Source: Candidatus Gastranaerophilales bacterium
GTDB lineage: Bacteria > Cyanobacteriota > Vampirovibrionia > Gastranaerophilales > Gastranaerophilaceae
DNA length: 64,000 nt
Reading direction: 5' to 3'
NCBI GenBank assembly: GCA_944323255.1
Contig: CALURU010000012.1
Span: 3,459-67,458, forward strand
In this document: piece by piece, positions 13,401 to 48,006 of the stretch
Numbering within the stretch: position 1 is the first letter of the stretch
Layout of the letters: each line of letters begins with the position of its first letter
Made by a program: the position numbers and the translations under genes
The notes under the pieces: model-generated
Told to the model about the DNA's origin: nothing
What the model saw: only the letters and a program-made list of their open reading frames with translations
Databases searched by the model: none

Positions 13401-13938
13401 ACAGGAGCTTCAAGGGCAAATAGAAACACTTAGCCGTGAAAGAGAACAAATTCTTGAGAGAATGAAAGGCTACGAGGATTTGAAAAAAGAAACCTTCCTC
13501 AAAACTTACAATGTTTTAAACGAAAACTTTAAAGATATTTTCCACAAGCTTTCAGACGGTGAAGGAACACTTATTCTTGAAAACGAAGAAAAACCGTTTG
13601 AAGGCGGACTTGACATAGAAGCACAGCCGAGAGATAAGAAAAAACAGCGTCTTGCAGGTATGTCAGGCGGTGAAAAAGCACTGACGGCACTTTCTTTTGT
13701 TTTTGCAATCCAAAAGTACATGCCGGCACCTTTCTACGCTTTTGACGAAGTTGACGCAAGCCTTGACGGTATAAACGTTGAAAAGCTTGCCCATATTGTA
13801 CAATCTCAGGCAGAGACGACACAATTTATCGTAGTAAGCCACAGAAAACCAATGATTGAATCTGCTAACAGGACAATCGGCGTAACCCAGAAAGAAAAAG
13901 GCATCTCCAAAGTTACCGGTGTCAAGCTCCGCGACTAG
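10444..13938 (+). CDS. smc: Chromosome segregation protein SMC
   Basis: Walker A GPNGSGKS, coiled coils, hinge (GRATFVPLN, GGAVRK), signature MSGGEKAL, Walker B AFDEVDASLD. Confidence 0.98.
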   Translation: MYIKQLEIDNFKSFANKVEIPMLKGFTTISGPNGSGKSNIIDSILFALGLSTSRTLRAEKLFHLISTYNKRNEAYVKVTFGETDDGDFSVARRIRKSSQGFNSIYYLDDKIATLSDIHAKLEKYNITPNSYNVMMQGDVMSITNCTPNERRKIIDEIAGVADFDRRIEQATGELDTVEKRVVNSTLILNEVNARLEQLNEEKEVALKYQKLKDEKTALESQINTVKFFDLRRNLEKAHENILEFTKRKKEEEVKSKDLEERLRLIKERYDEISKTITEKGEGHQLELKQKAEEIKGSIDRKNSSIAYADKQIQDNLKTIENAKNGIEVQKDKIKDAELKISLKQDQIKGIEKNIEEQKAILHKILEDMSGLNETAEKHIEKRNSLRKELEELQDKETKLIQKQAPMEADLSTKKKALEDAKAKLAELESFKANFSETRSSKELLIEQLGKELDDFKIILKNTLYEYDKTKNEITDLDYDLQAARKKIYQLEAVKQANEEANLGRAVDTVVNANIQGVHAPLVKLGQVDEEYSTAMEIAVGGRMSHIVVDDEHVASTCIELLKSSNAGRATFVPLNKIVKCPRSLNLPKEKGVIDFAINLIDFDDEYLNAFYYAVGETLVVEDRSVANKLIGKYRMVTLSGDLFEKSGSITGGAVRKTGLKFSQNSDSEIDTFKSRLKEMESKYAALVSKRSTLEAKMEDVRSKYSNSTTEFNKAKLELTSLETNFANTQQNIEERQNFIKTTEPEISSLEKSLDKMEEEHITISEKMTDLQTSIEEVEKLMNDADLKDLKEKTAGVEAEIKRYEKNMADTNHEIEGLKQTIDFIKNTTLETMNETIDRSEKANCELELDKAKFAEEIKGLKEQLEVLEVQIKEITEKLGELLKQRDEINNDLVKVETDKNLKANEIEKIAEQIESFKARRRELEPQLEETKNILEEAGVNINDLTPVEMSIEEITSRIQRLQKRMDDLGAVNMKALEDFENVSARQQELQGQIETLSREREQILERMKGYEDLKKETFLKTYNVLNENFKDIFHKLSDGEGTLILENEEKPFEGGLDIEAQPRDKKKQRLAGMSGGEKALTALSFVFAIQKYMPAPFYAFDEVDASLDGINVEKLAHIVQSQAETTQFIVVSHRKPMIESANRTIGVTQKEKGISKVTGVKLRD

Positions 13939-14020
13939 GGGGGGTAAATGTATTTGGTCGGTAGGTAAAACTACAAGTTAGGCGTTTTACAAGGGGGGTA
14001 AATGTATCGGGTTGGTGAGT
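13938..14020 (+). repeat. Diverged direct duplication starting GGGGGGTAAATGTAT, period 54 bp
   Basis: GGGGTAAATGTAT at 13941 and 13995; downstream TTGGTCGGTAGGTA vs CGGGTTGGTGAGTA. Confidence 0.8.
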
Positions 14021-14037
14021 AGTGAATGGTGGGTATG

Positions 14038-14108
14038 GTGACTAAGTGATTAAGTGACTGAGTGACTAAGATTAGTGAAGCGTGAGGTGTGAAGCGTGAA
14101 GGGAACAT
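14038..14108 (+). repeat. GTGA octamer x4 plus heptamer x4 array upstream of the ORF6N gene
   Basis: GTGACTAAGTGATTAAGTGACT is identical to 8288-8309; ends GAAGGGAACATT as at 8072-8083. Confidence 0.85.
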
Positions 14109-14195
14109 TAAACAAATTTGGGCGAACACCTTCCTTTACGAGGTAAAGTCGGGATGAGTGATAACAAGAATAAAAGTTCTCAAAGATAGCAAAAT

Positions 14196-14705
14196 ATGGA
14201 AAATTTAGTACAAATCCAAAATTTAATATACGAAATTAGAGGATTCAAGGTAATGCTCGACAGCGACCTCGCAAAGTTGTATGAAGTTGAAACAAGAGCT
14301 TTAAATCAGGCAGTAAAGCGTAATATTGAAAGATTTCCGGCTCATTACATGTTTCAGCTTACAAAAGAGGAATACAAAAACTTGATATCACAAAATGTGA
14401 TATCAAATTGGGGCGGGGTCAGAAAAATGCCTTATGTTTTCACCGAGCAAGGTGTTGCAATGCTTTCATCGGTTTTAAAATCCAAACGTGCAATTCAAAT
14501 TAATATCCAGATTATTGACACATTTGTTAAGCTAAGGCAGCTTGCAATTGAGCACAAGGATTTGGAGCAGAGAATTGCAGAATTGGAGCATTACTTCATC
14601 GAACATACAAAAGATTACAAAGAAGATATGAAGGAAATTTATCAGGCTATTGACTTATTGATGGACAGAACAAAGCCTTCAAAAGTAGGGTTTGTTAAGG
14701 AATAA
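14196..14705 (+). CDS. ORF6N domain-containing DNA-binding protein
   Basis: IRGFKVMLDSDLAKLYEVETRALNQAVKRNIERFP...PYVFTEQGVAMLSSVLKS. Confidence 0.93.
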   Translation: MENLVQIQNLIYEIRGFKVMLDSDLAKLYEVETRALNQAVKRNIERFPAHYMFQLTKEEYKNLISQNVISNWGGVRKMPYVFTEQGVAMLSSVLKSKRAIQINIQIIDTFVKLRQLAIEHKDLEQRIAELEHYFIEHTKDYKEDMKEIYQAIDLLMDRTKPSKVGFVKE

Positions 14706-14881
14706 TTTTATGATAAAAAAGACTATAATAATAAAGAAACGCCCCTCACCCGAATTTCTAAGTTCGCAAAACGCTCACTAAGAAATTCTGCCCTCTCCCT
14801 CAAAAACTAACCTAAGATTACAAACCGGATGCAGGCAGCAGGGAGAGGGGATAAACAAAAAGTAGGGATTGTTAAGGAATA
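14681..14881 (+). mobile_element. CCCTCACCC/CCCTCTCCC...GGGAGAGGGG REP/MITE-like element flanked by a 24-bp direct repeat
   Basis: Element at 14742-14850 with internal hairpin GAATTTCT..AGAAATTC; AAAAGTAGGG(T/A)TTGTTAAGGAATA at 14681-14704 and 14858-14881. Confidence 0.6.
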
Positions 14882-14993
14882 GTAACATTCATGAAAACAG
14901 AGGATAAAAAATAGTATAATATAAATTAAAATAATAATGGGAAAAAGGTATTTTTCCGCACCTTCTTTTAATAAGAAGGGGAGTAATGGAGAT

Positions 14994-15926
14994 ATGGCAT
15001 TAAATAATATAGAGAATATAAGCAAAAGTACGATCGGGTTGACATCTCACCCTAATACTCTTCTCAAGGAAAAGGAAATAGAATATGTTCAGGAAGCTGA
15101 AGTTGACGGAATTGAGATTCTTGTTAATATGGCAAAACACGGCAAAATTGACCCGTGGCATGTTGATATTGTTGAAGTTACTGACAAATATTTGATGCAT
15201 TTATTTCAGTCTAAGGCGCAAAACCTTAGACTTACAGGCAGAACGCTTCTATTTGCTGCAATACTTTTGAAACTTAAATCAAATATTCTAGAAGGGCTTG
15301 ACGTTCTTGATTTTGAGCCACAGCATGAAGAAGATTTCAATTACGATGATGATATGCCGTTGGATTATGGGGAAGAAGAATATATTCCGACTAATAATGT
15401 AATATCTATTGACGAAGTTTTGCAGAGAAGAACAAGCGTTAGACTTAACCACAATCGTGTTGTAACTTTGAGAGACTTAATCAGGCAATTGGAATTTTAT
15501 GAAATGCTTGATAAAAAGCAGTCGCTTAAAAATGCCCACGAGCGTGCTAAAAGGCGTGTTCAAAATTATGCAAGGCTGTCACCTGATGATATCATTAATC
15601 TTGCGCATGATGAATATATAGAAAACGGAGTTCAAAGGTTGAAGGCAAACCTTTCAGAGATTTTGAGCAGGCAGGATAAAATTGAATTGAATGAACTTAC
15701 GCTGCTTGGAATGGACAAAATTAGTGCTTATATTTCACTTTTGTTTTTGACAGCTGAAAGCGATTATGATTTGGAGCAGGACGAGTTTTATTCAGATTTG
15801 TACGTTGTAAAAAGAAAGCCAACTCTGACTCTTCCTGAAGAAGAGGGAAAAGAACTGGACGGTTTCATTAATAATGCGCAGAGTGTCATAGCAGAAACAG
15901 CAGAAGAAGATAAGGTTGGTGCATAA
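14994..15926 (+). CDS. scpA: Segregation and condensation protein A (kleisin)
   Basis: IDPWHVDIVEVTDKY, LLFAAILLKLKS, VTLRDLIRQL; located between smc and scpB; ORF track starts 14937. Confidence 0.88.
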   Translation: MALNNIENISKSTIGLTSHPNTLLKEKEIEYVQEAEVDGIEILVNMAKHGKIDPWHVDIVEVTDKYLMHLFQSKAQNLRLTGRTLLFAAILLKLKSNILEGLDVLDFEPQHEEDFNYDDDMPLDYGEEEYIPTNNVISIDEVLQRRTSVRLNHNRVVTLRDLIRQLEFYEMLDKKQSLKNAHERAKRRVQNYARLSPDDIINLAHDEYIENGVQRLKANLSEILSRQDKIELNELTLLGMDKISAYISLLFLTAESDYDLEQDEFYSDLYVVKRKPTLTLPEEEGKELDGFINNAQSVIAETAEEDKVGA

Positions 15927-16534
15927 TGGAACAATTAAAATCCAGAATTGAAGCCGTTTTGTTTGTCACTGCCCGTGTGCTTCAAATAAAAGATATAGCA
16001 GAAATTTTAGAGGAAGAACCGGATAAGATTGAAGAAGCCTTGCTGGAATTGATTATGGATTATGCCTCACGTGATGGCGCTCTGGAGATTGACGACGAGG
16101 ATGGATATATTTTGCAGGTAAAACAAGAGCATCTGGATATTGTAGAAAAGCTTTGTCCTGTAGAGCTAAAGCCGCCTGTACTCAAGACACTTACTGTTAT
16201 TGCGCTGAAAGAGCCTATCAGACAGTCTCTGCTCAAGGAACTTAGGGGTTCAAACGCTTACGAACATGTGCAGGAGCTTCTGGAAAAAGGTTTAATTTCC
16301 CGTCATAAAGACAAGAACGGCAGATCTTTTAATATTAAAACAACTCCAAAGTTTGCGGAATATTTTAAGCTTAAAGGCGATGTAAGAACTCTGGTCAAGA
16401 CGTTGAATATTGACAAAGGGGTAAAGGACGATCCGGAAGAAGGACGCCAGACTTCTCCGCAGGGTGAAAAAGGGGTAAAGGACGATCCGGAAGAAGGACT
16501 CCAGGCTTCTCCGCAGACTGCTCACGAAAACTAA
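15926..16534 (+). CDS. scpB: Segregation and condensation protein B, with a C-terminal 18-aa duplication
   Basis: IEAVLFV, LKTLTVIALKEPIRQS, ELRGSNAYEHVQELLEKGLI, TTPKFAEYF. Confidence 0.95.
   Translation: MEQLKSRIEAVLFVTARVLQIKDIAEILEEEPDKIEEALLELIMDYASRDGALEIDDEDGYILQVKQEHLDIVEKLCPVELKPPVLKTLTVIALKEPIRQSLLKELRGSNAYEHVQELLEKGLISRHKDKNGRSFNIKTTPKFAEYFKLKGDVRTLVKTLNIDKGVKDDPEEGRQTSPQGEKGVKDDPEEGLQASPQTAHEN
16415..16516 (+). repeat. In-frame 54-bp tandem duplication in the scpB 3' end
   Basis: AAAGGGGTAAAGGACGATCCGGAAGAAGGAC at 16415 and 16469 (KGVKDDPEEG x2). Confidence 0.95.
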
Positions 16535-16553
16535 CATTTAAAAGGGATGGTAA

Positions 16554-18044
16554 TTGTCAGGGTATAAAATTTCAAAACCTAATAAAAAACCGGCGTTGAA
16601 CAGTGTAATTATTTATTCACTGCTCGGTTTTATATTGATTTTTATTTTATTATTCAGGCATTATGCTGATGATATTTATGGAGAAATCGGAAACTGGTAT
16701 TACAGGCACAACCAGATTTCGGAGGCTCAAAAATTCTACGAAAAATCATTCAAACTCGGCAACAATGATTCTTTTAGACGGGGAATTTACGTAAATTCAA
16801 TTATTAATTCGCCGTTATCTCTGGAGTCGCAGGAAAAACTGGTTAGTATAGCTGAAGATAAGGTTCAGGACAGTGCTTCAGTTAAAGCAAAATCTTTTTT
16901 GCAGGATTTAAAAAGAGAAATTCACAGACAGTATCCTGACAATTATATCAAACAATGTCCTTTTAATCAGAAGGTTATTCGCTGGAATCGTTTTCCGATA
17001 ACGTATACATATAATAATATTCAAAATGTTCCCGGAGAATACATTAATGAGATAAACAGGGCGTTTTCGGAGTGGGAAAAAGCTGGAATTGTTTTATTTA
17101 CGCAGACAGAAGGCAAGGCTGATATTGTTGTTAACTTTCGAAATAACAAGAATGAAAATATGGAGTATGGCAGAAAGTACGTAGTTGCTTATACAGTTCC
17201 TCAGGTTTCCAATACGGCATTAAATAGAATGGATATTAATTTTTATATTCAGGATCCGGAAGGGCGCAGATTTTCTGCCAACCAGATATACAACACTGCG
17301 CTGCACGAAATTTTTCACGCATTAGGGTTTATGGGGCATAGTTTTAATCCGGATAATATAATGTATCTTGCTAAAGATAACAATACCCTGATTAATGATT
17401 CACGCACAACTTTAACTAATGCAGATATTTCAACCTTAAAGCTTTTGTATAAGATAAAGCCTGATATTACAAATGAAGGCGAATTAAAGAGCGAGTATAT
17501 TTCTTATCTGGTTCTGGGGGATGATGAGGAGGTAAATATTTCCAAGGCAAAAGAAGCAAAGAATTATATTTACCATGCTCCGACGCTTCCTAGCGGGTAT
17601 ATAGATCTTGCAGAGAGTCTCGTTGCAGAAAAACGTTATCCTGACGCTATCCGGTATCTGGAAAAGGCATTGAGTCTTTCTGATACTGACGAGATGAAAT
17701 ATATATCTTATTACAATCTGGCAGTGGCTTATTATTACATAAATCATCTTCCTATGGCGATGGAAAATCTTAACAGAGCAAAGGCAATAAAAGACAGTGA
17801 GGAATTGCATTTATTAAAAGCGGAAATTTTGCTGGAGGCAGACAGGAATGCCGCAGAAAGAGAGTATGAATATCTTATCCGCTCTGCTCCCGACAATCTG
17901 GATTATGTTATGAGGCTTGCAAATCTATATATAAAAGACAAAAAATATCTGCGTGTGAGGAAGTTGTTAAAAAGTTATATCAGGCGTAATCCGGAATCAC
18001 GAAATGATGAGCGTTTTATTCCATATAAGATATTGCTCTTTTAG
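16554..18044 (+). CDS. Membrane-anchored matrixin (M10-like) metalloprotease with TPR repeats
   Basis: N-terminal TM; ALHEIFHALGFMGHS (HExxHxxGxxH); Met-turn NIMY; TPRs (GYIDLAESL..AIRYLEKAL, YYNLAVAYY). Confidence 0.88.
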   Translation: MSGYKISKPNKKPALNSVIIYSLLGFILIFILLFRHYADDIYGEIGNWYYRHNQISEAQKFYEKSFKLGNNDSFRRGIYVNSIINSPLSLESQEKLVSIAEDKVQDSASVKAKSFLQDLKREIHRQYPDNYIKQCPFNQKVIRWNRFPITYTYNNIQNVPGEYINEINRAFSEWEKAGIVLFTQTEGKADIVVNFRNNKNENMEYGRKYVVAYTVPQVSNTALNRMDINFYIQDPEGRRFSANQIYNTALHEIFHALGFMGHSFNPDNIMYLAKDNNTLINDSRTTLTNADISTLKLLYKIKPDITNEGELKSEYISYLVLGDDEEVNISKAKEAKNYIYHAPTLPSGYIDLAESLVAEKRYPDAIRYLEKALSLSDTDEMKYISYYNLAVAYYYINHLPMAMENLNRAKAIKDSEELHLLKAEILLEADRNAAEREYEYLIRSAPDNLDYVMRLANLYIKDKKYLRVRKLLKSYIRRNPESRNDERFIPYKILLF

Positions 18045-18067
18045 CAATTTTATGGTATCATTTCAGT

Positions 18068-18283
18068 GTGAAAGTTGATTCTTCAAGAGCGCAATCCATT
18101 ATCACTCCAAGAACAACCGGTTATGCTGCAACTGCTTGTCTTGGGGCTGCTGTGTGGAGTGGCATAAGCAAGAATAAAACTTTTAGACACCAACACAAGC
18201 CTCTGGCATATATTACTGTTTTGCTGACAGCAGTTCATATAGGTTTAATCGAATATTATCGTCATAAATACAAAAAAATGTAA
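18068..18283 (+). CDS. Small hypothetical membrane protein
   Basis: 71 aa with two hydrophobic segments, co-oriented with its neighbours. Confidence 0.6.
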   Translation: MKVDSSRAQSIITPRTTGYAATACLGAAVWSGISKNKTFRHQHKPLAYITVLLTAVHIGLIEYYRHKYKKM

Positions 18284-18371
18284 CAAATTCCACTTATTCA
18301 ACAGTGGGTTGTTACATTTTTTTGTTCTTTATAATACAATTAATTTAAGTAAAAAATAACCAGAGGTAAAA

Positions 18372-19049
18372 ATGTTTAACGAGATTAAGACTCACGAGAT
18401 TACGGTAGACATTGTAATTTTAACAATAAAAGACGATGCATTGCAGGTTTTGCTGGTAAAACGTAATAACGAGCCTTTCAAAGATAAATGGGCTATACCG
18501 GGCGGATATGTAAGAATGTCAGAAAATCTTGATGAAGCTGCTATGAGGGTTTTGAAAGAAAAAACAAATGTTGATAACATTTATCTTGAGCAGCTTTATA
18601 CATTTGGCGATCCATTGAGACACCCTGTATCACGTGTTATTACCTGTGCATATTTTGCGCTAATCAGAGCCGAGGATTTCAATGTTGTAACAACGCCTGA
18701 AATAGCATGGCATAAAGTTTCAGACTTACCACCTCTGGCGTTTGACCACAAGGAAATTATCGAGTATTCACTAAAGCGCACACGTGAGCGTTTAGAGATG
18801 TGCCCTGTAGCTTACCAGTTATTGAATGAGAAATTTACGCTTACTGAAATGCAAAAAGCATATGAAATGATTATGGGCAAAAAGCTTGATAAGCGTAATT
18901 TCAGAAAGAAGGTTATCACAACAGACGGATTGCGTGAACTTAATGAGTTTTCAAAATCATCGTCCAAACGTCCTGCTCGTTTGTACACATTTGACAGTAT
19001 AAAGTTGAATTCAAAGCGTGCCCACTTTATTAAAAAAGGCAGCGGGTAG
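18372..19049 (+). CDS. nrtR: NrtR-family Nudix plus wHTH transcriptional regulator
   Basis: WAIPGGYV..ENLDEAAMRVLKEKT (degenerate Nudix box), YLEQLYTFGDPLRHP, PPLAFDH, wHTH FTLTEMQKAYE..LDKRNFRKK..RPARLY. Confidence 0.88.
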   Translation: MFNEIKTHEITVDIVILTIKDDALQVLLVKRNNEPFKDKWAIPGGYVRMSENLDEAAMRVLKEKTNVDNIYLEQLYTFGDPLRHPVSRVITCAYFALIRAEDFNVVTTPEIAWHKVSDLPPLAFDHKEIIEYSLKRTRERLEMCPVAYQLLNEKFTLTEMQKAYEMIMGKKLDKRNFRKKVITTDGLRELNEFSKSSSKRPARLYTFDSIKLNSKRAHFIKKGSG

Positions 19050-19131
19050 GTAAGTTGGTGAAGCGTAAAATGTGAGGGACAGGCAGGTCGGTTGGGCATA
19101 TTTGCCAGACAGGATTAAAAAAGGAGAATAA

Positions 19132-19356
19132 ATGTTAACACTAGTTTGGACAATACAGGTTATATCAGCTCTATTATTGATAGTATTAATTTTGATGCAC
19201 TCGCCAAAAGGCGACGGCATCGCAGGGATCGGCAATGCAGCACAAATGTTTTCTTCCCAGAAGAGTGCTGAAAAAGGCTTAAATAAACTAACCGGAATAA
19301 TTGCTGCTGTATTTGTTTTGTGCATATTTCTTTTAGGATTTGGCATAATCAAATAG
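19132..19356 (+). CDS. secG: Preprotein translocase subunit SecG
   Basis: LIVLILMHSPKGDGIAGIG...SAEKGLNKLT. Confidence 0.92.
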   Translation: MLTLVWTIQVISALLLIVLILMHSPKGDGIAGIGNAAQMFSSQKSAEKGLNKLTGIIAAVFVLCIFLLGFGIIK

Positions 19357-20100
19357 ATGAATGAAATTTTTGCAAGAAATATTTTATACTGGGGCGAGGA
19401 AGCACAGTGTATATTAAATTCTGCACATGTTGCCGTATTCGGACTCGGAGGTGTGGGCGGATATTGCGCAGAAGCACTTGCCAGAAGCGGTGTGGGGAAG
19501 CTGACACTGATAGATTTTGATAAGGTCTCCAAAACCAATATAAACCGCCAGATTATTGCTTTAGAATCTACTATAGGACAAAATAAGACTGAACTTTTTA
19601 ATCTAAGGTTGAAGGATATCAATCCCGGGATAAGATTGAATTTAGTAAACGATTTTTATCAGGATGAATTTGACTTTTCCGGTATAAATTATGCAGCGGA
19701 TGCAATCGATACTATGCGCTCAAAAATTAATCTTTTGGTAAAATGTGTTGAGATGAAAATTCCGGTCATATCTTCAGTGGGCGCAGGCAATAGAATGAAT
19801 CCGGAAAAACTGTACATTTCAGACATTTCTGAAATCCATGATAAAAAAGCTCCGTTTGTATCTAATATTTTGTACCAATTAAATAAACGCAGCATAACAA
19901 GCGGTATAACTGTTGTAGCGAGTGATGAAAAACCTTTTGTAAGAGAAAAAATATCCGAATGCGAAAATATAATGACCGCTGACGGGAGTGAAATTCAGTT
20001 TAATAAAATAATTCCATCGTCGACCCCGTTTGTTGCCTCCTGTGCGGGAATATTCATGGCTTCGAGAATTGTATCGGATTTAATCGGCAGTAAGATTTAA
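19357..20100 (+). CDS. tcdA: tRNA threonylcarbamoyladenosine dehydratase (ThiF family)
   Basis: VAVFGLGGVGGY, LIDFDKVSKTNINRQ, DAIDT, SSVGAGNR, VVASDE. Confidence 0.9.
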   Translation: MNEIFARNILYWGEEAQCILNSAHVAVFGLGGVGGYCAEALARSGVGKLTLIDFDKVSKTNINRQIIALESTIGQNKTELFNLRLKDINPGIRLNLVNDFYQDEFDFSGINYAADAIDTMRSKINLLVKCVEMKIPVISSVGAGNRMNPEKLYISDISEIHDKKAPFVSNILYQLNKRSITSGITVVASDEKPFVREKISECENIMTADGSEIQFNKIIPSSTPFVASCAGIFMASRIVSDLIGSKI

Positions 20101-20105
20101 GAAAA

Positions 20106-20133
20106 AGGGCGGAGCGATTTATCGCTCCGCCCT
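20106..20133. terminator. Hairpin between convergent genes
   Basis: AGGGCGGAGCGAT-tt-ATCGCTCCGCCCT preceded by an A-run. Confidence 0.8.
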
Positions 20134-20157
20134 GTCAAATTGCCTTGCTTTAAAACC

Positions 20158-20718: not shown

Positions 20719-20949
20719 GACTTAAAGCTCCTAATCAACTTATTTCCTATGTGAGTGTTTACGGAACGTTTTTGTGAAATCTTTAGCTTTTTGCCCGGCG
20801 TTGTTACAAAACTTTATAAAACTCAATAAATCTTCAAGAAAAAATGGCTGAAACCCGCATTTTATCTGGGTGGTTATTTTAAGATTTAAATTTTAAGATA
20901 TAATAAGAAGGTATATAGAAAGTTTGGTTAATTTTACATTTCTTAACAT

Positions 20950-24135: not shown

Positions 24136-24189
24136 AATTATCTTTCAGAAAAGGGGTACAGAGGAAAAACGCTAAGCTTTTCCGCAGGG

Positions 24190-24229
24190 TGAGAAGAGGC
24201 GCCGGCAAGCTTGCCGGCGCCTCTTCTCA
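24190..24229. terminator. 40-bp perfect palindrome between convergent genes (probable bidirectional terminator)
   Basis: TGAGAAGAGGCGCCGGCAAG|CTTGCCGGCGCCTCTTCTCA, no spacer. Confidence 0.7.
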
Positions 24230-24242
24230 ATATTCATAAACC

Positions 24243-37085: not shown

Positions 37086-37086
37086 T

Positions 37087-38025: not shown

Positions 38026-38045
38026 TTTTTTACCTTTCGTTTTGC

Positions 38046-38150
38046 GTGAAGGGTGAAGAGTGAGGTGTGAAGGTTCATTATAGAAATTATTTAATTGTGA
38101 CTTGTTTTACTTATTAATATTTTTAATTGCTTGCTTCACTCTTCACACCT
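38046..38150. repeat. Forward GTGA heptamers x4 facing inverted copies, between fliO and fliP
   Basis: GTGAAGG GTGAAGA GTGAGGT GTGAAGG (38046-38073); gcttcac tcttcac (38133-38146). Confidence 0.8.
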
Positions 38151-38156
38151 TTCCCG

Positions 38157-38615: not shown

Positions 38616-38661
38616 AAAACTTCCTCTTTTAGTTAAGTTTTTACTGTTTTTTATTTGATTG

Positions 38662-39771: not shown

Positions 39772-39934
39772 ACTTAACCATTTCCCTACGGATAAACCTG
39801 CTCCTCACAAACATTTATCCCCAAGCTTATAATACATAATTATTTATATAAACACATCAACTGTTTGTATGAATTTTAATCAGGGTAAATAAGCAAGTGA
39901 TAAATGGATAGGAGGATTAATCGGAGTGCAAAAA

Positions 39935-39961
39935 GGGGCGGAATTTGAAAAATTCCGCCCC
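39935..39961 (-). terminator. glnA intrinsic terminator
   Basis: GGGGCGGAATTT-gaa-AAATTCCGCCCC with U-run on the minus strand. Confidence 0.85.
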
Positions 39962-39981
39962 GACTTTATTAAAAAAAACAA

Positions 39982-41343: not shown

Positions 41344-41373
41344 ACATTCCCTCCGATCTTTCTTAATAATAAT

Positions 41374-41425
41374 TGTACTAACTACACTAAAGCTTTATCG
41401 TATATTATTTTTTTAAATCGGTCAA
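41374..41425 (-). promoter_or_regulatory. glnA sigma70 promoter with a downstream TGTA-N5-TACA palindrome
   Basis: TTGACC (41425-41420), 17 bp, TACGAT (41402-41397); palindrome at 41374-41386. Confidence 0.5.
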
Positions 41426-41484
41426 TAGATTTGATATTAAGAATTTGTAAAGCAAAAAATATTTTTATGATTTTTATAATCTGT

Positions 41485-42681
41485 ATGAATTCATATTTAA
41501 ACCATATACCTGCACAGATTAAAAATTCCGCATTCCCTCTGACGAGGCTGAAATCGGAAAAGCTTGAAGGAATACAGAAAAATATTCCGTTGTTTGAGGG
41601 TGTAAATATGAGGGATATTGCGTTTTTGACCAAGCGGTTTGAGACTTTGAATTTATATAGAGGGTGCAGGGTTAATTGTTCTCACTGTCTGAAGGATGCC
41701 AAACCGCCTCAAAAAGGGCGTGAGACAATTTTGTTTGAAGATTTAATGAGGTTTCTGGACGGATTCAGGGAACTCGGGGAAAGGTTAGGATTCAATGTTT
41801 TTCAGGGAAATAAGTATGTTAATATCATTGATGATGCTAACCCTTCCGACATTCCGATAAGGGGCAAAGAGCGGACGCATAGCGTTGTTGAGGCTATTGA
41901 AAAAATTTATGACAAAATAAATCTTCCGGTAATTTTTGTAACTTCAGGCTGGAATCGGGCTTCCAAATACGCACAAAGTGCTGCGGAAGAGCTGGTTAAA
42001 CTTGCTCAAAAAAAGCCTGATTCAATTGAGTCGGTAGAAGTTTCCATAAATCCTTTTGCGGGAGTAATGGAAAAATCACGAGAAGCGTTAAAAGACGGAA
42101 ATTCTGATAAAGCGAAGTTTTTCAGAAATATTTATACGGATAGAATATCAAATACTCTGGCTGTTTTTCTTAAACTTTTTGAGAGTGGAAAAGCCCGCAT
42201 AATATACCGCCACGCACCTGATTATGAGGGAAATGAACTTGTAGGCGCTCAGGAAACCCGCAGACTTTACGAAGAAATTTATGCAAAGCTCGGAGAAAAA
42301 ACAGGCTCTGCGCTTGATTTTATACCTGAATTGAAGCCCAAAAACCTTACAAAATTTGATAAATCTCACCTGATTGAGCCTAGCGGAAGAGGAAGACGGT
42401 ATTTTCCTGCGGATAAAAACTTAAAAGAGCAGTCCGAACTTATTGATGAAGCCATGGATTGGGAGATGATGAGTCCTGATGAGAGGCGAAAAATGCTTCT
42501 TGATTGTGCTCTCAAGTGCGTTGATATTGACGGAAGTGTTTACGCAACAATGCCTGCAAATAAAGTAGAGCACATTTTTGCGCCTGTAGAGTTAACAATT
42601 CCTGCAAATATAAAACTGAATTACGAAAACAAAACTCCCGCAGGAAATATATTCAGTGACATTGAGTTTATAGGCGGCTGA
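41485..42681 (+). CDS. Orphan radical-SAM-like protein
   Basis: LNLYRGCRVNCSHC (CxxxCxxC, 41665-41688); ATG 41485 chosen because the ORF-track start overlaps glnA. Confidence 0.65.
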   Translation: MNSYLNHIPAQIKNSAFPLTRLKSEKLEGIQKNIPLFEGVNMRDIAFLTKRFETLNLYRGCRVNCSHCLKDAKPPQKGRETILFEDLMRFLDGFRELGERLGFNVFQGNKYVNIIDDANPSDIPIRGKERTHSVVEAIEKIYDKINLPVIFVTSGWNRASKYAQSAAEELVKLAQKKPDSIESVEVSINPFAGVMEKSREALKDGNSDKAKFFRNIYTDRISNTLAVFLKLFESGKARIIYRHAPDYEGNELVGAQETRRLYEEIYAKLGEKTGSALDFIPELKPKNLTKFDKSHLIEPSGRGRRYFPADKNLKEQSELIDEAMDWEMMSPDERRKMLLDCALKCVDIDGSVYATMPANKVEHIFAPVELTIPANIKLNYENKTPAGNIFSDIEFIGG

Positions 42682-42749
42682 GAGGAAAAGCAATAATCTG
42701 ACAATATGGCTCATCTATGGTATAATAAAACCCATTGAAGGAGAAATAT

Positions 42750-44006
42750 ATGAACAAATTAAAAATCGGAATTATCGGACTCGGAACTGTAGGCTGCGGT
42801 GTTTATAAAACATTACAGAATGTAGATAATGTTGAAATTGTACAGATTGCGGTTAAAAATATAAATAAGCAGAGAGGCGTAGACGTACCGTCCGGCATGC
42901 TTACCGATAATCCCTATGAAATTGTTAATAATCCTTTAATAGACGTGGTTGTAGAACTAATTGGCGGTGTAGAACCTGCATATGATTATATTGCAGCTGC
43001 TATTAAAAACGGGAAACATATTGTTACTGCAAATAAAGAACTTCTTGCAAAAAGAGGGGAAGAATTATTTAATCTCGCAGAAGAGAATAACAGAGTAGTG
43101 CTGTATGAAGCGGCAATAGCAGGCGGTATTCCAATAATAATGCCTATTAAAACAATCCTTGCAGGAAATAAAATAAATAAAATCCATGCAATTCTCAACG
43201 GAACAACAAATTATATTCTGACCAAAATGGATGTTGACGGTGCTTCATACGAGGACGTTTTGAAAGAAGCACAGCTGCTCGGATATGCAGAAACTGATCC
43301 GACAGGCGATGTTGAAGGTTTTGATGCCGCATACAAGATTACAACGCTCGCAACTATTGCTTTTAAAAAACGGGTTAAAATTGAAAATGTTTACAGAGAA
43401 GGTATAACTAAAATCAGAAAAGAAGATATGGCAAAGGCTAACGAATTCGGGTTCAAAATCAAGCTTATTGCAAGTGCTACAATTGATGAGAATGATAATG
43501 CAGATGTAAGAGTTCATCCGATGCTTGTGCCAAAAGACAATTTGCTTGCACATACGGACTATGTAACAAATGCAGTTCTTATAAGCGGTCATCCGATAGG
43601 AAGCATAGTTCTTTCCGGTCCTGGAGCGGGCGAGTTTCCGACTGCAAGCTCTGTTGTCGGAGATATTCTTGCAATAGCTGCAGAATTTGGGAAAACGGAT
43701 TATCTTCTGCCGATGATGAGATGCAATCATACTTCTAAGGCAAATCCAGTAAACATTGATAATACTTATAATAAATATTACATATCAATTACTGCTCCAA
43801 ACGCAATCGGTGTAATCGCAAAAATCGGAACGATATGTGCCAGCAAGAACATAAGCCTTTCAAGCATTCTTCAAAAAGGTGTTTCTGAGGATAATACAGC
43901 GGATATTACAGTTATTACCGAAAGCTGTCAGGAAAAACTTATTAAAGAAGTCGTAAACGAACTAAGCGATTGCACGGTAAACAGCTTGATACGTGTTGCG
44001 GGTTAA
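42750..44006 (+). CDS. hom: Homoserine dehydrogenase with C-terminal ACT domain
   Basis: IGIIGLGTVG, HIVTANKELLA, YEAAIAGGIP, ILNGTTNYIL, GYAETDPTGDVEG, GPGAG..TASSV. Confidence 0.97.
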   Translation: MNKLKIGIIGLGTVGCGVYKTLQNVDNVEIVQIAVKNINKQRGVDVPSGMLTDNPYEIVNNPLIDVVVELIGGVEPAYDYIAAAIKNGKHIVTANKELLAKRGEELFNLAEENNRVVLYEAAIAGGIPIIMPIKTILAGNKINKIHAILNGTTNYILTKMDVDGASYEDVLKEAQLLGYAETDPTGDVEGFDAAYKITTLATIAFKKRVKIENVYREGITKIRKEDMAKANEFGFKIKLIASATIDENDNADVRVHPMLVPKDNLLAHTDYVTNAVLISGHPIGSIVLSGPGAGEFPTASSVVGDILAIAAEFGKTDYLLPMMRCNHTSKANPVNIDNTYNKYYISITAPNAIGVIAKIGTICASKNISLSSILQKGVSEDNTADITVITESCQEKLIKEVVNELSDCTVNSLIRVAG

Positions 44007-44043
44007 TTAAGAGCAGGCATGCGGAAAATAATTTTTATATAGA

Positions 44044-44073
44044 AAAAAGCAGGCAATCAGGAGCCTGCTTTTT
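44044..44073. terminator. Bidirectional terminator between hom and the SLH gene
   Basis: AAAAAGCAGGC-N8-GCCTGCTTTTT. Confidence 0.85.
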
Positions 44074-44098
44074 CTTGTTTTAGCGAACGACTTACTTA

Positions 44099-46048
44099 CT
44101 ATTCGCCGCTGCAACCAAATGCAATGGTTACACGTTCTTTTGGATTGATGGCAGAAATTTTGTATCCCTTAGCGTCAACTAAGTATCCGACTTCGTCGCC
44201 GGTTGCCTGTACTAAGCCGACAGTACCGGAAATTGCAGTTCTTGTAAGGTCGATAGGAGCTTTGATTGTGTCCTTAACAACATCGCCGACACTTCTTGCA
44301 GATGCCATAAACTGACCCTGGAAGGCTTCACCTAAGGCAATACCTGTACCGGAAGCTACGTCTTCAAGTGCGTTACCAAGGTTAGATAACATACCGCCTG
44401 TTGTACGACCTACAATACCTAACATCTGACCGCCCCATGTAAGAGGTGCCGTAACGATTCTTGATACAATGTTCGGTGTATTAGACTTGTTGATTTCAGC
44501 GTTAAGGATTTGTCTAGGAAGTGTTGCTTTGCAGCCGCAGTTTTCAATTTCAGTGAATGCAAGTTTCAATGCACCCTTTTGGCATCCTGAAGGTCTTACA
44601 ACTTCTACAACTTTACCGTAAACTTTTGATCCGCAAGGGAATAATTTACCGTTGATTGTAACATCTTCTAATGTCTTAGCTGCAAATCTTTGTCCTACGT
44701 GAGAAGATTTTGCACTGACTTGATCTTTGAATTCCAACTGAAGTGTAGGAATTTGAACAAGTTCTTCGTTTTCAATAAATGCTTTCTTGTCAACAGGACA
44801 CATAGGGCAATCGTTGTTTGCTGTTACAGGGTTTTTGTCAATGCCTGCTGCTACACGAATGTTTTGTAACATAGCTGCGATATCAGCACGGGAAGCATCC
44901 TTAAACGGTGCAATAGTATTAGGGTTAGGTGAGTTATTCAAAGCACCTTTATCTAATGCAATTGCGATAGGAATTTGAGCCCATTCAGGAACTGTGTTTC
45001 CGTCGCAGTATTTAGACAAGATTTCTTGAGCTTTGCATTTGTCCATAGTTGGACATTGAATACCCTTAGATAATGCACAGAGTGCTTCTGCTCTTGTTAC
45101 ATTGTGGTTTGGAAGGAATTTGCCGTCAGGATATCCCTTGAGCAAGTCCTGATGAACCGCAACTGTAATAGCTGAATTTGCCCAGTGGTTTGTAGGAACG
45201 TCTGAGAATAGTTTTTCAGGTGCGCAAGAGTACATGTCTTTGTTAAAACCTTTAACTAACATAGTTGCAAATTCTGCACGTGAAATATTCTTAGACGGTT
45301 TGAATAATCTGTCCGGATAACCTACAACAACATCATTTGTTGCAAGTTTATCGATTTCGCAAGAAGCCCAGTATCCGTCAGGAACGTCAGGGAACATTTG
45401 CAAGCCTGCTGCTGCACCTGTCATGTTGCTGAAAGGTGAAAGGTCAAACGGTACTAATGTCTTTTTAACGGCTTGAATTGAGTTTGCCGTACCCATCTGA
45501 ATAGGGCAGCCGTTACCGTCTATTTTTGCTTCATCTCTTACAATCGGCGCACCAGTGTGTCTCGGCATATCGTTTAGACAAGGAATGTCTGTTGCCGCAC
45601 CCGTAATTGAGCCGTCAGAAGCTACAGTTGTACCCATTGTTCCTGCTGTAAGTTTGTTAATTTCTCTGTTTACCGAAAAACCTTCTGCTGTGTAGATAGA
45701 ATCTTTTTCTGTACCTACAAAATTGTTGTAACCGTAAACAGCGTTAGGATAAGAGTAAACCTGTTTCATATCTGCACGTGACAGATCTTTTGTTCCCGGG
45801 CAAAGTGCACATGAAGGAACCGGATCAGGTTCGCACTCCGGAGCGGCATTACATCCGCAATCCGGTGCCGGAGTAGGATCACAAGGACAGGCAGCACCTG
45901 TAATTTCAGGAATGTCATCGCAAGGACACGCACCCTGTGTTACTACAGGTTTTTGGTCGCACGGGCAGGCTGCCATTACCGTATTGAACGAACACGTTGC
46001 TATCCCAACGGCAATTGCAGCTGCCACAGTAAGTTTTCTAATCGTCAT
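44099..46048 (-). CDS. S-layer homology (SLH) domain protein with Cys-rich N-terminus
   Basis: FPDVPDGYWA..VVGYPDRLFKP..ISRAEFA; FSDVPTNHWA..KGYPDGKFLP..VTRAEA; third SLH ASRADIA; ATG 46048 after GGAGG. Confidence 0.9.
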   Translation of the reverse strand: MTIRKLTVAAAIAVGIATCSFNTVMAACPCDQKPVVTQGACPCDDIPEITGAACPCDPTPAPDCGCNAAPECEPDPVPSCALCPGTKDLSRADMKQVYSYPNAVYGYNNFVGTEKDSIYTAEGFSVNREINKLTAGTMGTTVASDGSITGAATDIPCLNDMPRHTGAPIVRDEAKIDGNGCPIQMGTANSIQAVKKTLVPFDLSPFSNMTGAAAGLQMFPDVPDGYWASCEIDKLATNDVVVGYPDRLFKPSKNISRAEFATMLVKGFNKDMYSCAPEKLFSDVPTNHWANSAITVAVHQDLLKGYPDGKFLPNHNVTRAEALCALSKGIQCPTMDKCKAQEILSKYCDGNTVPEWAQIPIAIALDKGALNNSPNPNTIAPFKDASRADIAAMLQNIRVAAGIDKNPVTANNDCPMCPVDKKAFIENEELVQIPTLQLEFKDQVSAKSSHVGQRFAAKTLEDVTINGKLFPCGSKVYGKVVEVVRPSGCQKGALKLAFTEIENCGCKATLPRQILNAEINKSNTPNIVSRIVTAPLTWGGQMLGIVGRTTGGMLSNLGNALEDVASGTGIALGEAFQGQFMASARSVGDVVKDTIKAPIDLTRTAISGTVGLVQATGDEVGYLVDAKGYKISAINPKERVTIAFGCSGE

Positions 46049-46158
46049 TTTAACCTCCTTTGGTATTAGGTGTGGAGTAGATTTACGTTCATTCTGCAAA
46101 CTTCATTTACCCCTTTTATATGGAGCAGTGGTTTTAGCTCCTTTGAAACTTCTTATCG

Positions 46159-46277
46159 GTTGAATAGTTGAAAAGTTGAAAGGTTGAATAGTTTGTTTTA
46201 AACTGATCTTCGTGCAGATTAGTAAACATTGCAGATTTTTTTAACTTTTCAACTGTTCAACTTATCCACTTTTCAAC
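46159..46277. repeat. Four GTTGAA(A/T)N octamers followed by five inverted copies
   Basis: 46159-46190 forward; 46238-46277 inverted (ttttcaac, tgttcaac...). Confidence 0.85.
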
Positions 46278-46416
46278 TGTATTTCATTGACACCTAAATT
46301 ATGGAGTTTTTCGCAAATTAAATCATTACCAAAAAAGAGAGTCCAGTCGGGTTATTAGAAGTTTTATTAACTTTTGTACCGCTGAACTCTCTCTGGTTTC
46401 TTATCCTGTAATTATA

Positions 46417-48006
46417 CTAATTCAGGCTTGTAGTAAAATCTTCTGCCGAAAATTCTTTGCCTGTCAATTGTTTGATTAAATCGTATTCTTCCACGGAAGC
46501 ACCAAATTTGAAGATATTTTCATCCATATATTTTGAGCTCTCCGGATTTTCGGTGATATTTCCAAGCTTTGATTTCAGAAAATTATAAATCTGAACCTTC
46601 ATAAGATTTGCTCTAAAATAATTCTGATAGTATGCCGGATGAGAAAGATAATGCGGAATTGTCGCCCACTCGTTATCCGCTTTAGTTTTTCTGTTTAAAT
46701 ATTTATAAGTCAAATTATTCCAGAGCTCTTTCGGATTCTGCTCCGGATTTGCGTAAAATTGACGTTCAAAATCGATTATAAGAAGACTTTTTGCTACAAA
46801 ACCCGCTTCATCTTCTATGTGTGTTGCCTTAAATTTCTCCAAAAGCTCGGCAGGAATAATTCCGGCTAAAACATTTTCAGTCTTGATAATATCACCCATC
46901 ATCATTGCAATCGCTTCCGTAACGGCAGGAGAAGAAGCACGTTTATCAAGGTATGTGAGCGAAAGCGAAATCCCTAAATCATAAACGCAGTGTCCGAGTT
47001 CATGATTCAGCGTATCAAGGCTTGTAACATTGTTTGTAAGGTTCGCCAATATCCTTGAATCCTTTCCGGTTTCTACGCCAAAACAGAAGCCGTGGGTGTT
47101 TTTACCTTTTCTTGGAAATAAATCCAGAGTAATTTTTCCCTCTTTCTCAAACTCATCTATATCATAACCCATATTTTTATACATGCTTTTTGAAATCGAA
47201 ACAATGTCTTGAGCCTCCAAAATTTTATTCACCCCTTTTTCAACCCTTTTTACAAGTTGAGCTTGAGCCTCTAAAATTTCATTTACCCCTTTTTCTGGAT
47301 TTGTGTCCAGTAGCAAACCATAATGGTAATTTTCTAAGGAGTTTATTCCAAAAAATTCTTTTAATTCATTTTGCTTCCTAGATAAAATCTCGTTAATTTT
47401 ATTATTTGATTCTGAATAAGTTTCATCTATTAATTTGTCCAGAAAGTCGAAATCTACATCATAATCCTCTTTAAGCTTGTATTCAAAATAATTTTTGTAC
47501 CCTTTGTTTTGTGCAAAACTGTTTCTCATCCTGACAAATTCGACCATGTCATCTGCAATTAAATCTCCGCCCTTGATTTTGGCATCATAAGCTTTTTGGC
47601 GCTTCTCCGGATTGGTTTCCGTTTGCAGAATCTTAAAAATCTCTGTTTTTGTAACCTCTTTTCCGTCAATTTGGGGAATATAAGAATTAAACTTTTTGGC
47701 TATTTCATTTTCTTTTTGCCTTAAAGCTTTCAGCTCTTCACCTGTGTTTAATTCTTCATCAAACTCTTTTAATAAATCTTTAAGCTGCTTTTGTTCGTGT
47801 TTTGAAAGGGGATTTTTATCAACTGTTTTAAATTTTTCATAAAATTCTTCATTTCTGAAAAGCTTTGAGTATTCTTCCTGAACTTCTTCGTATTTTTTCA
47901 AGTTTTCAGGGGTCGAGTTTGTATAAAAATCCCAGCAGGATTTTTCCAGTGCGATAGAAACCCGTTCTAAATCTTTGCAAAACTCATCTCGTAATTCATT
48001 AAACAT
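46417..48006 (-). CDS. M3/M2-like zinc oligopeptidase
   Basis: DLFPRKGKNTHGFC, TLNHELGHCVY (HExxH), EAIAM, WATIPHY..PAYYQNYFRA. Confidence 0.88.
   Translation of the reverse strand: MFNELRDEFCKDLERVSIALEKSCWDFYTNSTPENLKKYEEVQEEYSKLFRNEEFYEKFKTVDKNPLSKHEQKQLKDLLKEFDEELNTGEELKALRQKENEIAKKFNSYIPQIDGKEVTKTEIFKILQTETNPEKRQKAYDAKIKGGDLIADDMVEFVRMRNSFAQNKGYKNYFEYKLKEDYDVDFDFLDKLIDETYSESNNKINEILSRKQNELKEFFGINSLENYHYGLLLDTNPEKGVNEILEAQAQLVKRVEKGVNKILEAQDIVSISKSMYKNMGYDIDEFEKEGKITLDLFPRKGKNTHGFCFGVETGKDSRILANLTNNVTSLDTLNHELGHCVYDLGISLSLTYLDKRASSPAVTEAIAMMMGDIIKTENVLAGIIPAELLEKFKATHIEDEAGFVAKSLLIIDFERQFYANPEQNPKELWNNLTYKYLNRKTKADNEWATIPHYLSHPAYYQNYFRANLMKVQIYNFLKSKLGNITENPESSKYMDENIFKFGASVEEYDLIKQLTGKEFSAEDFTTSLN
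47206..47293 (-). repeat. In-frame 54-bp-period duplication inside the M3 peptidase
   Basis: EKGVNEILEAQ-AQLVKRV-EKGVNKILEAQ; ACCCC cores at 47231 and 47285. Confidence 0.9.

Follow-up and report, generated by a model that had tools for sequence, protein, structure and literature searches.

The locus described here raises the question of why three places in one bacterial chromosome carry direct repeats that begin at the same G-rich word and share a period of exactly 54 nucleotides (nt). The places lie in a 64,000-nt stretch of contig CALURU010000012.1 (Candidatus Gastranaerophilales bacterium, assembly GCA_944323255.1), which in its full length we refer to as the window, and they are the region after the stop codon of smc, the end of scpB and the interior of a gene for an M3 peptidase. 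We consider it likely that the three loci are arrays of one lineage-specific family of repeats of about 54 nt, which is dispersed in the Gastranaerophilales, varies in copy number and is carried in frame in two housekeeping proteins. An initial annotation of the window had instead treated the loci as unrelated and had proposed a fixed 54-bp molecular ruler that acts at the shared word; the spacing that it reported is confirmed here, and neither of these two readings is supported.

The Gastranaerophilales, an uncultured gut lineage that has been little studied, are a non-photosynthetic sister lineage of the cyanobacteria. The window is ordinary chromosome with a GC content of 37%, its coding strands are purine-rich, and it is almost completely recovered in chicken-gut metagenomes. 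Relatives were collected through the M3 peptidase and are metagenome-assembled genomes of Candidatus Gastranaerophilales from gut and rumen, some under the labels Melainabacteria or Vampirovibrio. In what follows, L denotes DNA records of these relatives, P homologous proteins and X chicken metagenome runs.

Units at the three loci and in relatives

The window contains 12 copies of the motif GGGGTRAA (R being A or G), whereas shuffled sequences contain 2.58 +/- 1.51, and the 62-nt pattern GGGGTRAA-N46-GGGGTRAA has exactly three matches, compared with none in 100 shuffles:

13941-14002, + strand: motif pair after smc, motif starts 13941 and 13995
16418-16479, + strand: motif pair in scpB, motif starts 16418 and 16472
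47228-47289, - strand: motif pair in the M3 peptidase gene, motif starts 47228 and 47282

A self-offset scan of the window that is blind to the motif (at least 25/30 identity, offsets 10-300) finds just six direct-repeat loci in the 64 kb, two of which, scpB and M3, have an offset of 54. The junction AGGGT(T)GAAAAAGGGGT, which had been noted for both coding cases, is seen in scpB and in M3, and it is where the tail of a unit meets the head of the unit behind it. We distinguish A-type units, to which the coding copies belong, from the B-type units after smc, and the units of the window are as follows:

16415..16468, + strand: scpB unit 1, A-type, in frame (KGVKDDPEEGRQTSPQGE)
16469..16522, + strand: scpB unit 2, in frame (KGVKDDPEEGLQASPQTA), then HEN and the stop codon
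47242..47295, - strand: unit inserted in frame in M3 (EKGVNEILEAQAQLVKRV), absent in the closest orthologues
47208..47241, - strand: native M3 target copy, GAAAAAGGGGTGAATAAAATTTTGGAGGCTCAAG (EKGVNKILEAQ), identical to the single-copy sequence of L001
13936-13938, + strand: stop codon TAG of smc
13939..13992, + strand: smc-3' unit 1, B-type, a G-run with TAAATGTATTTGGTCGGTAGGTAAAACTACAAGTT and a 14-nt spacer, directly after the smc stop
13993..14036, + strand: smc-3' unit 2 (GGGGGTAAATGTATCGGGTTGGTGAGTAG...), a diverged second copy with about 22/25 identity over the head
46071..46146, - strand: single A-type unit in the 5' region of an SLH-domain (S-layer-like) gene, with a GGAGC..GCTCC hairpin, then ATATAAAAGGGGTAAATGAAGTTTGCAG...CTACTCC
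24149..24195, + strand: degenerate single unit, tentatively A-type, AAAGGGGTAC...TTCCGCAGGGTGAGAAG, 14 nt past the stop of an AsmA-like gene and fused to a terminator hairpin

The scpB repeat has a period of 54 nt, 2.0 copies and 94% identity, and it encodes KGVKDDPEEGRQTSPQGE twice. In the M3 peptidase gene (46417-48006, - strand) 34 nt are repeated (GAAAAAGGGGTRAATRAAATTTTRGAGGCTCAAG) and 20 unlike nt are added, and the smc-3' pair has about 25 repeated and about 29 unlike nt. A unit consists of a head, (A)AAGGGGTAAAT(G), a short hairpin, which in the A-type is GGAG..CTCC, and an A-rich tail. The initial annotation held that the duplicated bodies differ between loci and are not one dispersed repeat, and this is contradicted by the units of relatives: the ScpB unit of the window agrees with the M3 unit of L004 at 41/54 positions in phase, and the ScpB unit of L161 agrees with the M3 unit of L162 at 42/54. 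The agreement extends to the 3' 30 nt, outside the motif, where ScpB and M3 share 23/30 along the diagonal of three variant types. These three variants (QTSPQGE, QATPPDE and NPTSPxxE) are each present in both proteins, which argues for some copying between loci, and the peptides added in ScpB (..RQTSPQGE, ..RQTAPPVK and ..NPTSPLVE) resemble those added in M3 (..SQTTPQGK, ..SQATPPDE and ..NPTSPHDE).

The coding units also match units that lie between genes in L001, L002, L050 and L003, and the homology between ScpB, M3 and intergenic units extends over the full unit. A-type arrays with the same head, hairpin and tail are found in L001 (11706-11870), L002 (12153-12370) and L050 (15176-15290); those of L001 and L002 comprise 4-5 units between the M3 gene and the SLH gene, and that of L050 lies upstream of another gene. 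In L003, at a distance of 3.6 kb, the stop codon of another gene is directly followed by a copy of the M3 unit (about 80% identical, by eye). When about 1.9 Mb were searched with a strict pattern for the unit's 3' half, ..CTCC[AG]C-N3-10-A3-7-G4-9-TRAA, the matches were confined to ScpB units, M3 units and these intergenic arrays, and an alignment of 22 units gives the consensus AAAGGGGTAAATGAAnTTTnGGAAGnnnAAGnCCAGCTnCTCCGCATAATnAA. When the 40 nt that follow the motif were scored for similarity at 198 motif sites, the highest scores below the reference units went to the M3 units of L003 and L004, to the ScpB units of L085 and L076 and to the copies in the SLH 5' region (12-23, against a control median of 5).

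The unit in the 5' region of the SLH gene is the best match in the window of an nhmmer profile of intergenic units (E 3.8e-4), its hairpin has a z score of -4.6, and it is at this site that L001 and L002 carry their arrays. In the gap between the M3 and SLH genes of the window (46159-46278), the octamer GTTGAAAA forms two arrays in opposite orientation (x4.4, and inverted x5.1), which take the place of the unit arrays of L001 and L002. A related junction that had been noted near 24181 is real and is part of the degenerate unit at 24149-24195, whose assignment to the A-type is tentative, its profile matches being weak (E 2.6-3.6). A-type units in the window are assigned to four loci: scpB, M3, the SLH 5' region and 24149. 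At 24190-24228 a perfect GC-rich hairpin of 17 bp (GAGAAGAGGCGCCGGCAAGCTTGCCGGCGCCTCTTCTC) lies between convergent genes and is likely a bidirectional terminator.

Whole units are gained or lost between close relatives, with 0-4 units in ScpB and 0-3 in M3. ScpB homologues of at least 80% identity either end ..NIDKGVKD(D..)* or carry 1-4 units of 18 amino acids (aa), and P0001, a ScpB 99% identical to that of the window, has four. Records with equal downstream DNA form a series in which L113 ends KGVKDDEG*, L078 has 54 nt more and L103 has 108 nt more, and in this series the ATG of the next gene overlaps the ScpB stop. The lengths of M3 orthologues likewise step by 18 aa (510/511, 528/529, 546/547 and 564; and 600, 618 and 636), and the units always stand right after a conserved EKGVNEILE. 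Empty M3 sites, with a single EKGVN.ILE..D, are present in L001 (93% identical) and P0123 (89%), and P0122 has two units. Pre-insertion alleles, which the initial annotation had suggested looking for among orthologues, therefore exist for both genes, and its reading that 54-bp units were added in frame at a motif, here at sites headed by AAAGGGGTRAA, is supported in both. The composition of the filled sites differs: the new unit consists of 22 nt of local copy and 32 nt of non-local sequence in scpB and of 34 nt and 20 nt, respectively, in M3, and both sum to 54. In chicken samples, differences in copy number at scpB and M3 are suggested by depth ratios and protein alleles, and the depth ratios of X6 and X7 at scpB suggest more copies in other strains; chicken contigs aligned to the window gave no 54-nt joints at the two genes, since unitigs break inside the repeats.

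The sites that received the units in the two proteins are tolerant ones, the tail of ScpB and a connection between helices in M3. In an AlphaFold model of the window M3 (mean predicted local distance difference test score, pLDDT, 82.6), pLDDT falls below 50 for residues 251-265, a segment that runs from the C-terminal part of the insert into the start of the native copy and lies between modelled helices 237-250 and 267-278, away from the HExxH motif at 335-339. The inserted peptide, a short segment rich in Ser, Thr, Pro and Gln, is probably disordered. The same M3 site, after EKGVNEIL, holds other, unrelated inserts in P0157, P0212, P0213, P0216, P0229 and P0238, in L030 (10676-10890) and in L016 and L018 (10676), and judged from these sequences it behaves as an insertion hotspot. 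The inserts of other lineages, such as ..SQLPCPAGEGWGEGTIV.. and ..EEAAVRAERVTDAGEG.., resemble translated GC-rich hairpin repeats, and CCCTCCC..GGGAGGG elements are also found in L004 (6700), L032 and L117.

The B-type units after smc have the core GGTAGGT..AACTAC and can be written G-run-TAAATGTATTTGGnnGGTAGGTnAAACTACAAG. We compared contigs of the source organism (about 200x in X1) with the smc-3' units at 80% likeness and found the 39-nt core of 13941-13979 in about 14 copies with unrelated flanks (depth 2853 in X1 versus about 200). In relatives, B-type units are found in L001 (6731), L004 (6530-6680) and L054 (6653-6723, 16009-16074 and 17725), where they precede arrays of GTGACTAA or GTGAAGG, and the smc-3' units of the window are followed by a comparable block:

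14038..14101, + strand: tandem repeats 3' of the smc-3' units, the octamer GTGACTAA x4 and the heptamer GTGAAGC x4

Units followed by octamer and heptamer repeats form a recurring composite layout at 3' ends, also seen in L013 (10845), L020 (9469) and L054 (6653-6830). The block at 14038-14101 is over-represented about 10x by depth, with at least 17 different flanks in X1, and has a variant with a deletion of 14 nt, or two heptamers, in X7. The G-run at 13939-13945 varies among chicken samples, with one additional G in X6 and X7, and G-runs before TAAATG reach 9-11 G in other species.

Several results weigh against one family. With nhmmer profiles made from nine intergenic units of other species, the full-unit profile places six window copies within the top eight, mostly at weak E values (0.0055-3.4), and a core profile without the motif finds none of the window units. 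Homology is for this reason argued by stepping-stones through relatives. The M3 filler of the window (AQLVKRV) is the most diverged member, with 11-15/30 to the family, and its position and intermediates such as L066 (AQPAKMV; ..CAACCCGCAAAAATGG..) are what suggest that it belongs. The source genome contains no other copy at least 80% identical to the ScpB or M3 units and hence shows no sign of their recent movement. ScpB and M3 of the same genome were compared for the window only, where the two fillers differ, so that co-variation of unit types between the two genes is inferred from different assemblies. Apart from the 13-nt head and a TAAAAC at an equal offset, the A-type and the B-type have little in common; their common descent is plausible but unproven, and the 54-nt period of the smc-3' pair may be in part a coincidence. 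Simple insertion of a foreign unit, without later homogenisation, also does not explain how 22+32 and 34+20 both come to 54. At gathering score, no Rfam family matches in the window and matches over the L001 and L002 arrays are at chance level; no tRNA or tmRNA was found.

Period, position and folding

The period of 54 is the size of the unit, and an array has the period of its unit length. Intergenic A-type arrays have periods of 54/51/54 in L001, 53/53/53/54 in L002 and 55/56 in L050. Those of B-type units in the source genome are 51, 52, 54 and 55 nt, with the core recurring after 12-13 other letters in arrays of period 51-52 and a second two-unit locus of the same layout having 55 (records X1-2, X6-12), and L054 has spacings of 57-65 nt. 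In the window and in relatives, all coding arrays seen have a period of exactly 54 nt, or 18 codons, and this is consistent with selection for an intact reading frame: in genes, only units that are free of stop codons and a multiple of three in length would survive, and a family of 51-56 nt would then appear as a 54-bp ruler. A peak at 54 in the distances between motifs, which the initial annotation would have taken as support, derives from L001-L004 only. Among direct repeats over 1.24 Mb of the order, an offset of 54 accounts for 3/101 with no general peak, and a ruler acting throughout the order is rejected by this generic scan.

Most units are found either just past a stop codon or in a 5' region; they are in sense orientation and follow one another head to tail. 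Half of the intergenic motif clusters that are downstream of a gene on the same strand (21/41) stand within -6..+25 nt of its stop codon, and in 8 of those the TAA of the motif is itself the stop; the scpB array lies at the overlap with the ATG of the next gene. Some L001 units, as read from the sequence, are open reading frames (ORFs) of 18 codons, ATG..TAA. Translational coupling through TAAATG as a general function was considered and rejected, as no real gene starts there in the cases inspected.

The GGAG:CTCC hairpin is present in 9/13 intergenic units, and three more fold into a shifted hairpin of similar shape, with z scores of -1.4 to -6.1 in 12 of the 13 by single-sequence folding. The hairpin has a lower GGAG:CTCC stem, a one-base mismatch and an upper stem of 3-4 bp whose sequence varies by locus and whose pairing is kept. 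Coding units lack it (z about 0). No consensus structure came out of RNAalifold for 15 intergenic units, the variable left arm having been misaligned by MAFFT.

The word GGGGTAAAT of the head is found throughout the order, often iterated at periods of 8-15 nt (L004, L016, L021, L035 and L067). Such short-period arrays of heads alone, for example (GGGGTAAATTTT)n and (GGGAAGGGGTAAA)n, are located at L004 3607-3699 (-), L021 4748-4794 (-), L067 689-738 (-), L016 21121-21152 and L035 8567-8582, and their evenly spaced G4 runs could, from their sequence, form G-quadruplexes. A perfect inverted pair of heads in L066 (11779-11801, GGGGTAAATTATAGATTTACCCC, at 11779 and 11794) is the sole inverted arrangement seen.

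The 13-mer of the repeat heads recurs at the start of a much smaller element elsewhere in the window:

4470..4560, + strand: tiny promoter-to-terminator unit, CTTGACA-N17-TATAAA, about 50 nt, a hairpin (AGTCTTGCA/TGCAAGACT) and a T-run

After the promoter the layout is GGGGTAAATGTATATTTTTGAGTCTTGCA-loop-TGCAAGACTTTCC-Tn, and the predicted transcript starts with that 13-mer, GGGGTAAATGTAT. The tiny unit is also present in L011 (20492), L046 (1518), L047 (5723), L053 (6230), L054 (14050), L063 (13333) and L068 (3578). Across 8 species, the roughly 50 transcribed nt differ only in a 5-nt hairpin loop and in the T-run, and the M3 proteins of those species are only 50-71% identical to that of the window. 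The tiny unit has no match in Rfam. One metatranscriptome contig starts exactly at 4507, a weak indication of transcription, and such contigs are sparse for this element and for the repeats. From its sequence, 4506-4556 looks like an undescribed small RNA, and an ORF of 16-19 aa (MYIFESCT..) seems less likely; by its architecture the element may be related to the repeat family.

Spread of the units and alternative explanations

If the loci are arrays of one family, their copy number would change by replication slippage or unequal recombination between units, in the manner of a minisatellite, a view that has good support. The first unit at a site would be copied from another array in a way that depends on the motif or on homology, by template switching or gene conversion and possibly with a dedicated enzyme, and local homogenisation would follow copying at the shared head. 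For the composition of the filled sites, part local and part non-local (22+32, 34+20), copying with homogenisation fits better than cut-and-paste. In scpB, the natural C-terminus (..NIDKGVKD*) would read into the head of a unit placed after the stop, at the overlapping gene junction. In M3, the ancient EKGVNEILE codons (GAAAAAGGGGTAAATGAAATTTTGGAG) would happen to mimic the head and the left hairpin arm of the unit. KGV is ancient in both proteins (..NIDKGVKD in ScpB and ..NPEKGVNEIL in M3), residues E238, K239, V241, N242 and L245 are invariant in 22 M3 orthologues, and this conservation suggests that the native M3 copy is an ancient site that resembles the beginning of a repeat unit.

An explanation that we regard as unlikely, and that nevertheless fits several observations, is that the units are non-autonomous mobile elements comparable to repetitive extragenic palindromic (REP) sequences or to MITEs, transposable elements of miniature size with inverted repeats. 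An enzyme acting in trans, such as an HUH tyrosine transposase of the IS200 or REP-associated (RAYT) type or another nuclease, would move single-stranded DNA hairpins and cut beside the GGGGTAAAT head, and arrays would grow by repeated insertion. A conserved 5' word with an imperfect palindrome and co-varying stems is REP-like (PMC3116915), empty and filled sites both exist, the roughly 14 dispersed B-type copies have unrelated flanks, two unlinked genes share three variants, and other inserts occupy the same M3 site (P0157, P0212/P0216, P0213, P0229 and L030). The enzyme, however, is missing where we looked for it: the roughly 55 ORFs of the window include neither a cas gene nor a transposase, integrase, HUH nuclease or reverse transcriptase, the last three being enzymes that the initial annotation had suggested looking for in genomes with a peak at 54, and the called genes near the arrays examined include no RAYT or other transposase. 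The units are direct tandems, not the inverted doublets (REPINs) typical of RAYT substrates, for those of ScpB and M3 the rest of the source genome has no close copies (at least 80% identical), and the long stretch of copied local sequence in every new unit is not expected if a fixed element moves by cut-and-paste.

It is also doubtful that the units are selected functional modules, as opposed to selfish or neutral repeats, with the coding copies as by-products. They could on this account be hairpins that stabilise mRNA at 3' ends or in 5' untranslated regions, Shine-Dalgarno-like, stop and start cassettes (GGGG-TAA-ATG), or sites for a protein or RNA partner shared with the 4506 transcript. 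Their enrichment right at stop codons in sense orientation, the hairpins kept in intergenic but not in coding copies, the arrays that several species have in the S-layer-like gene's 5' region, the 18-codon mini-ORFs of L001 and the 13-mer that heads a promoter-to-terminator unit with a near-identical transcribed part in 8 species are all consistent with a function. Copy number and presence nevertheless vary freely between close relatives, which speaks against a required function at any single locus, the mini-ORF peptides are not conserved, no real downstream gene was seen to start at TAAATG, and evidence from RNA, in the form of sparse metatranscriptome contigs, is almost nil.

A related and improbable proposal ties the two kinds of element together: a family of hairpin small RNAs of about 50-54 nt (cf. 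4506-4556) would be the originals from which the GGGGTAAAT-headed units, about 54 nt each, were copied, and the units would spread by a motif-targeted process templated by RNA or by single strands. If it were true, this process would write 18-codon cassettes into conserved proteins and keep variants alike between unlinked loci of one genome, and it would be a new way of seeding in-frame protein insertions in bacteria.

The ruler of the initial annotation has become very improbable. It supposes a site-specific machine that recognises GGGGT(A/G)AA and, irrespective of the sequence there, duplicates or inserts a constant length of 54 bp (about five helical turns). All three pairs in the window are exactly 54 apart, the local and non-local parts differ while their sum is always 54, and all coding arrays of relatives have the period 54. 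These regularities are what frame selection on a unit of about 54 nt predicts in genes; among the family's non-coding arrays the periods 51, 53, 55 and 56 occur, the smc-type arrays of the source genome have 51-52 and 55, the bodies are homologous between loci and not arbitrary local sequence, and there is no candidate enzyme in the window.

That the loci are independent local tandem duplications, sharing period and G-rich word by chance and through Lys-Gly-Val codon usage, is hardly tenable. The antiquity of KGV in both proteins, the purine-rich coding strands and the weak likeness of the window's own M3 and ScpB fillers would agree with it. The absence of 54-spaced pairs from 100 shuffles, against 3 observed, speaks against it, and for scpB and M3 it is refuted by the homology between loci, since the ScpB and M3 units of relatives agree at 41-42/54 in phase, including the parts that do not encode KGV, and homologous intergenic arrays exist. 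Ectopic CRISPR-type integration, in which a pseudo-repeat would receive from Cas1-Cas2 a spacer of about 24 nt, with duplication of about 30 nt of that repeat, would yield a duplicated local segment and a non-local filler of constant sum, and we reject it as extremely improbable because the putative spacers are one conserved family across loci and species rather than diverse captured DNA, the split between duplicated and new sequence varies (22/32 vs 34/20), and the window has neither cas genes nor a CRISPR array.

Known repeat systems and neighbouring features

The initial annotation stated that no described system has this signature, and close analogues do exist. By behaviour, the family appears closest to the minisatellites of the mycobacterial interspersed repetitive unit (MIRU) type, to REP-type hairpin repeats and to the in-frame palindromic elements of Rickettsia, an analogy that implies no membership by descent. 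MIRUs are direct repeats of 40-100 bp at tens of dispersed loci, placed between the genes of a single transcription unit and overlapping their stop and start codons, with small ORFs, inverted repeats, empty and filled sites and variable numbers of tandem repeats (VNTR) (PMC3184786). The units described here, with 51-56 nt in the A-type, also form direct tandems at many dispersed loci per genome, and they share the copy-number variation, the empty and filled sites, the stop/start overlap, the small ORFs and the internal hairpins. The likeness is one of kind, and no sequence relation is expected in another phylum with 37% GC here. Unlike MIRUs, the units have a conserved 5' word (GGGGTAAAT), are AT-rich with a short hairpin, and in two arrays are translated as 18-aa cassettes in conserved proteins.

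Rickettsia palindromic elements (RPEs) are small palindromic repeats found in frame in unrelated housekeeping genes, at places where the fold tolerates them (PMC10969869). The in-frame palindromic repeat in ScpB and in M3, there in a segment of low pLDDT between helices, is similar. RPEs, however, are about 100-150 bp long and occur as single copies, whereas the present units have 54 nt, are in tandem and variable in number, and are mostly intergenic. REP sequences are extragenic imperfect palindromes that measure 21-65 nt, carry a conserved 5' word, frequently lie at the 3' ends of genes and sometimes form evenly spaced tandems (PMC3116915; PMC3184786). The present hairpins, with their co-varying stems and the conserved head GGGGTAAAT, are comparable, but the arrays run head to tail on one strand, no REPIN doublets or RAYT were seen, and the stems are shorter and less GC-rich. 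CRISPR arrays differ in that their spacers are diverse, whereas the fillers here are one conserved family, and no cas genes are present in the window.

Among cyanobacterial repeats, the short tandemly repeated repetitive (STRR) sequences, heptamer arrays, are similar in kind to the hepta- and octamer arrays (GTGACTAA, GTGAAGG and GGGTGAG) that flank the units. Small dispersed repeats (SDRs) of cyanobacteria, reportedly described by Elhai et al. in 2008, measure 21-27 nt. Very small dispersed repeats in Nostoc are mentioned in PMC3116915. A full-text literature search on small repeats of Melainabacteria and cyanobacteria returned nothing relevant, and the present family appears to be undescribed.

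The family has consequences for annotation and for inference from repeats, as frame selection on a unit of about 54 nt can mimic a ruler. The ScpB tail, M3 and the smc 3' region can serve as VNTR markers for typing Gastranaerophilales strains in chicken and human gut metagenomes. A conserved enzyme and a condensin subunit with 0-4 cassettes of 18 aa also provide a natural series for how small repeats become protein, as has been proposed for RPEs. For the evolution of bacterial repeats, the points of interest are the arrival of the first unit at a new GGGGTAAAT site and the presence of three variants in two unlinked genes.

The genes of the window are recA, a TolC-like gene, the gene for NAD kinase, dnaK, smc, an ORF6N gene, scpA, scpB and a gene for an M10/TPR protein, and further chemotaxis and flagellar export genes, glnA, hom, the genes for the SLH-domain protein and the M3 peptidase, a sigma factor gene, thyX and dinB. 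Some of these regions have features of their own:

14196-14705, + strand: ORF6N-domain (KilA-N-like) gene, with repeats, between smc and scpA
57708-58511, + strand: ORF of 267 aa adjoining fliS, matching the C-terminal part of Pfam AvrB_AvrC (E 5.6e-13)
3366-3391, 8047-8320, 14038-14101, 38046-38073, 45430-45448 and 63128-63158: intergenic hepta- and octamer tandems

In L076-L088, scpA follows smc after about 55 nt and there is no ORF6N gene, and in L117 an ORF6N-like gene follows smc; the gene looks like a small insertion into the smc-scpAB operon. The match to AvrB_AvrC is unexpected for a gut member of the Gastranaerophilales. The intergenic tandems consist of GGGTGAG, GTGAAGA/G/C, AGTGACTA/GTGACTAA and TAGTGAA, and with their G-rich sense strand they are reminiscent of cyanobacterial STRR sequences.

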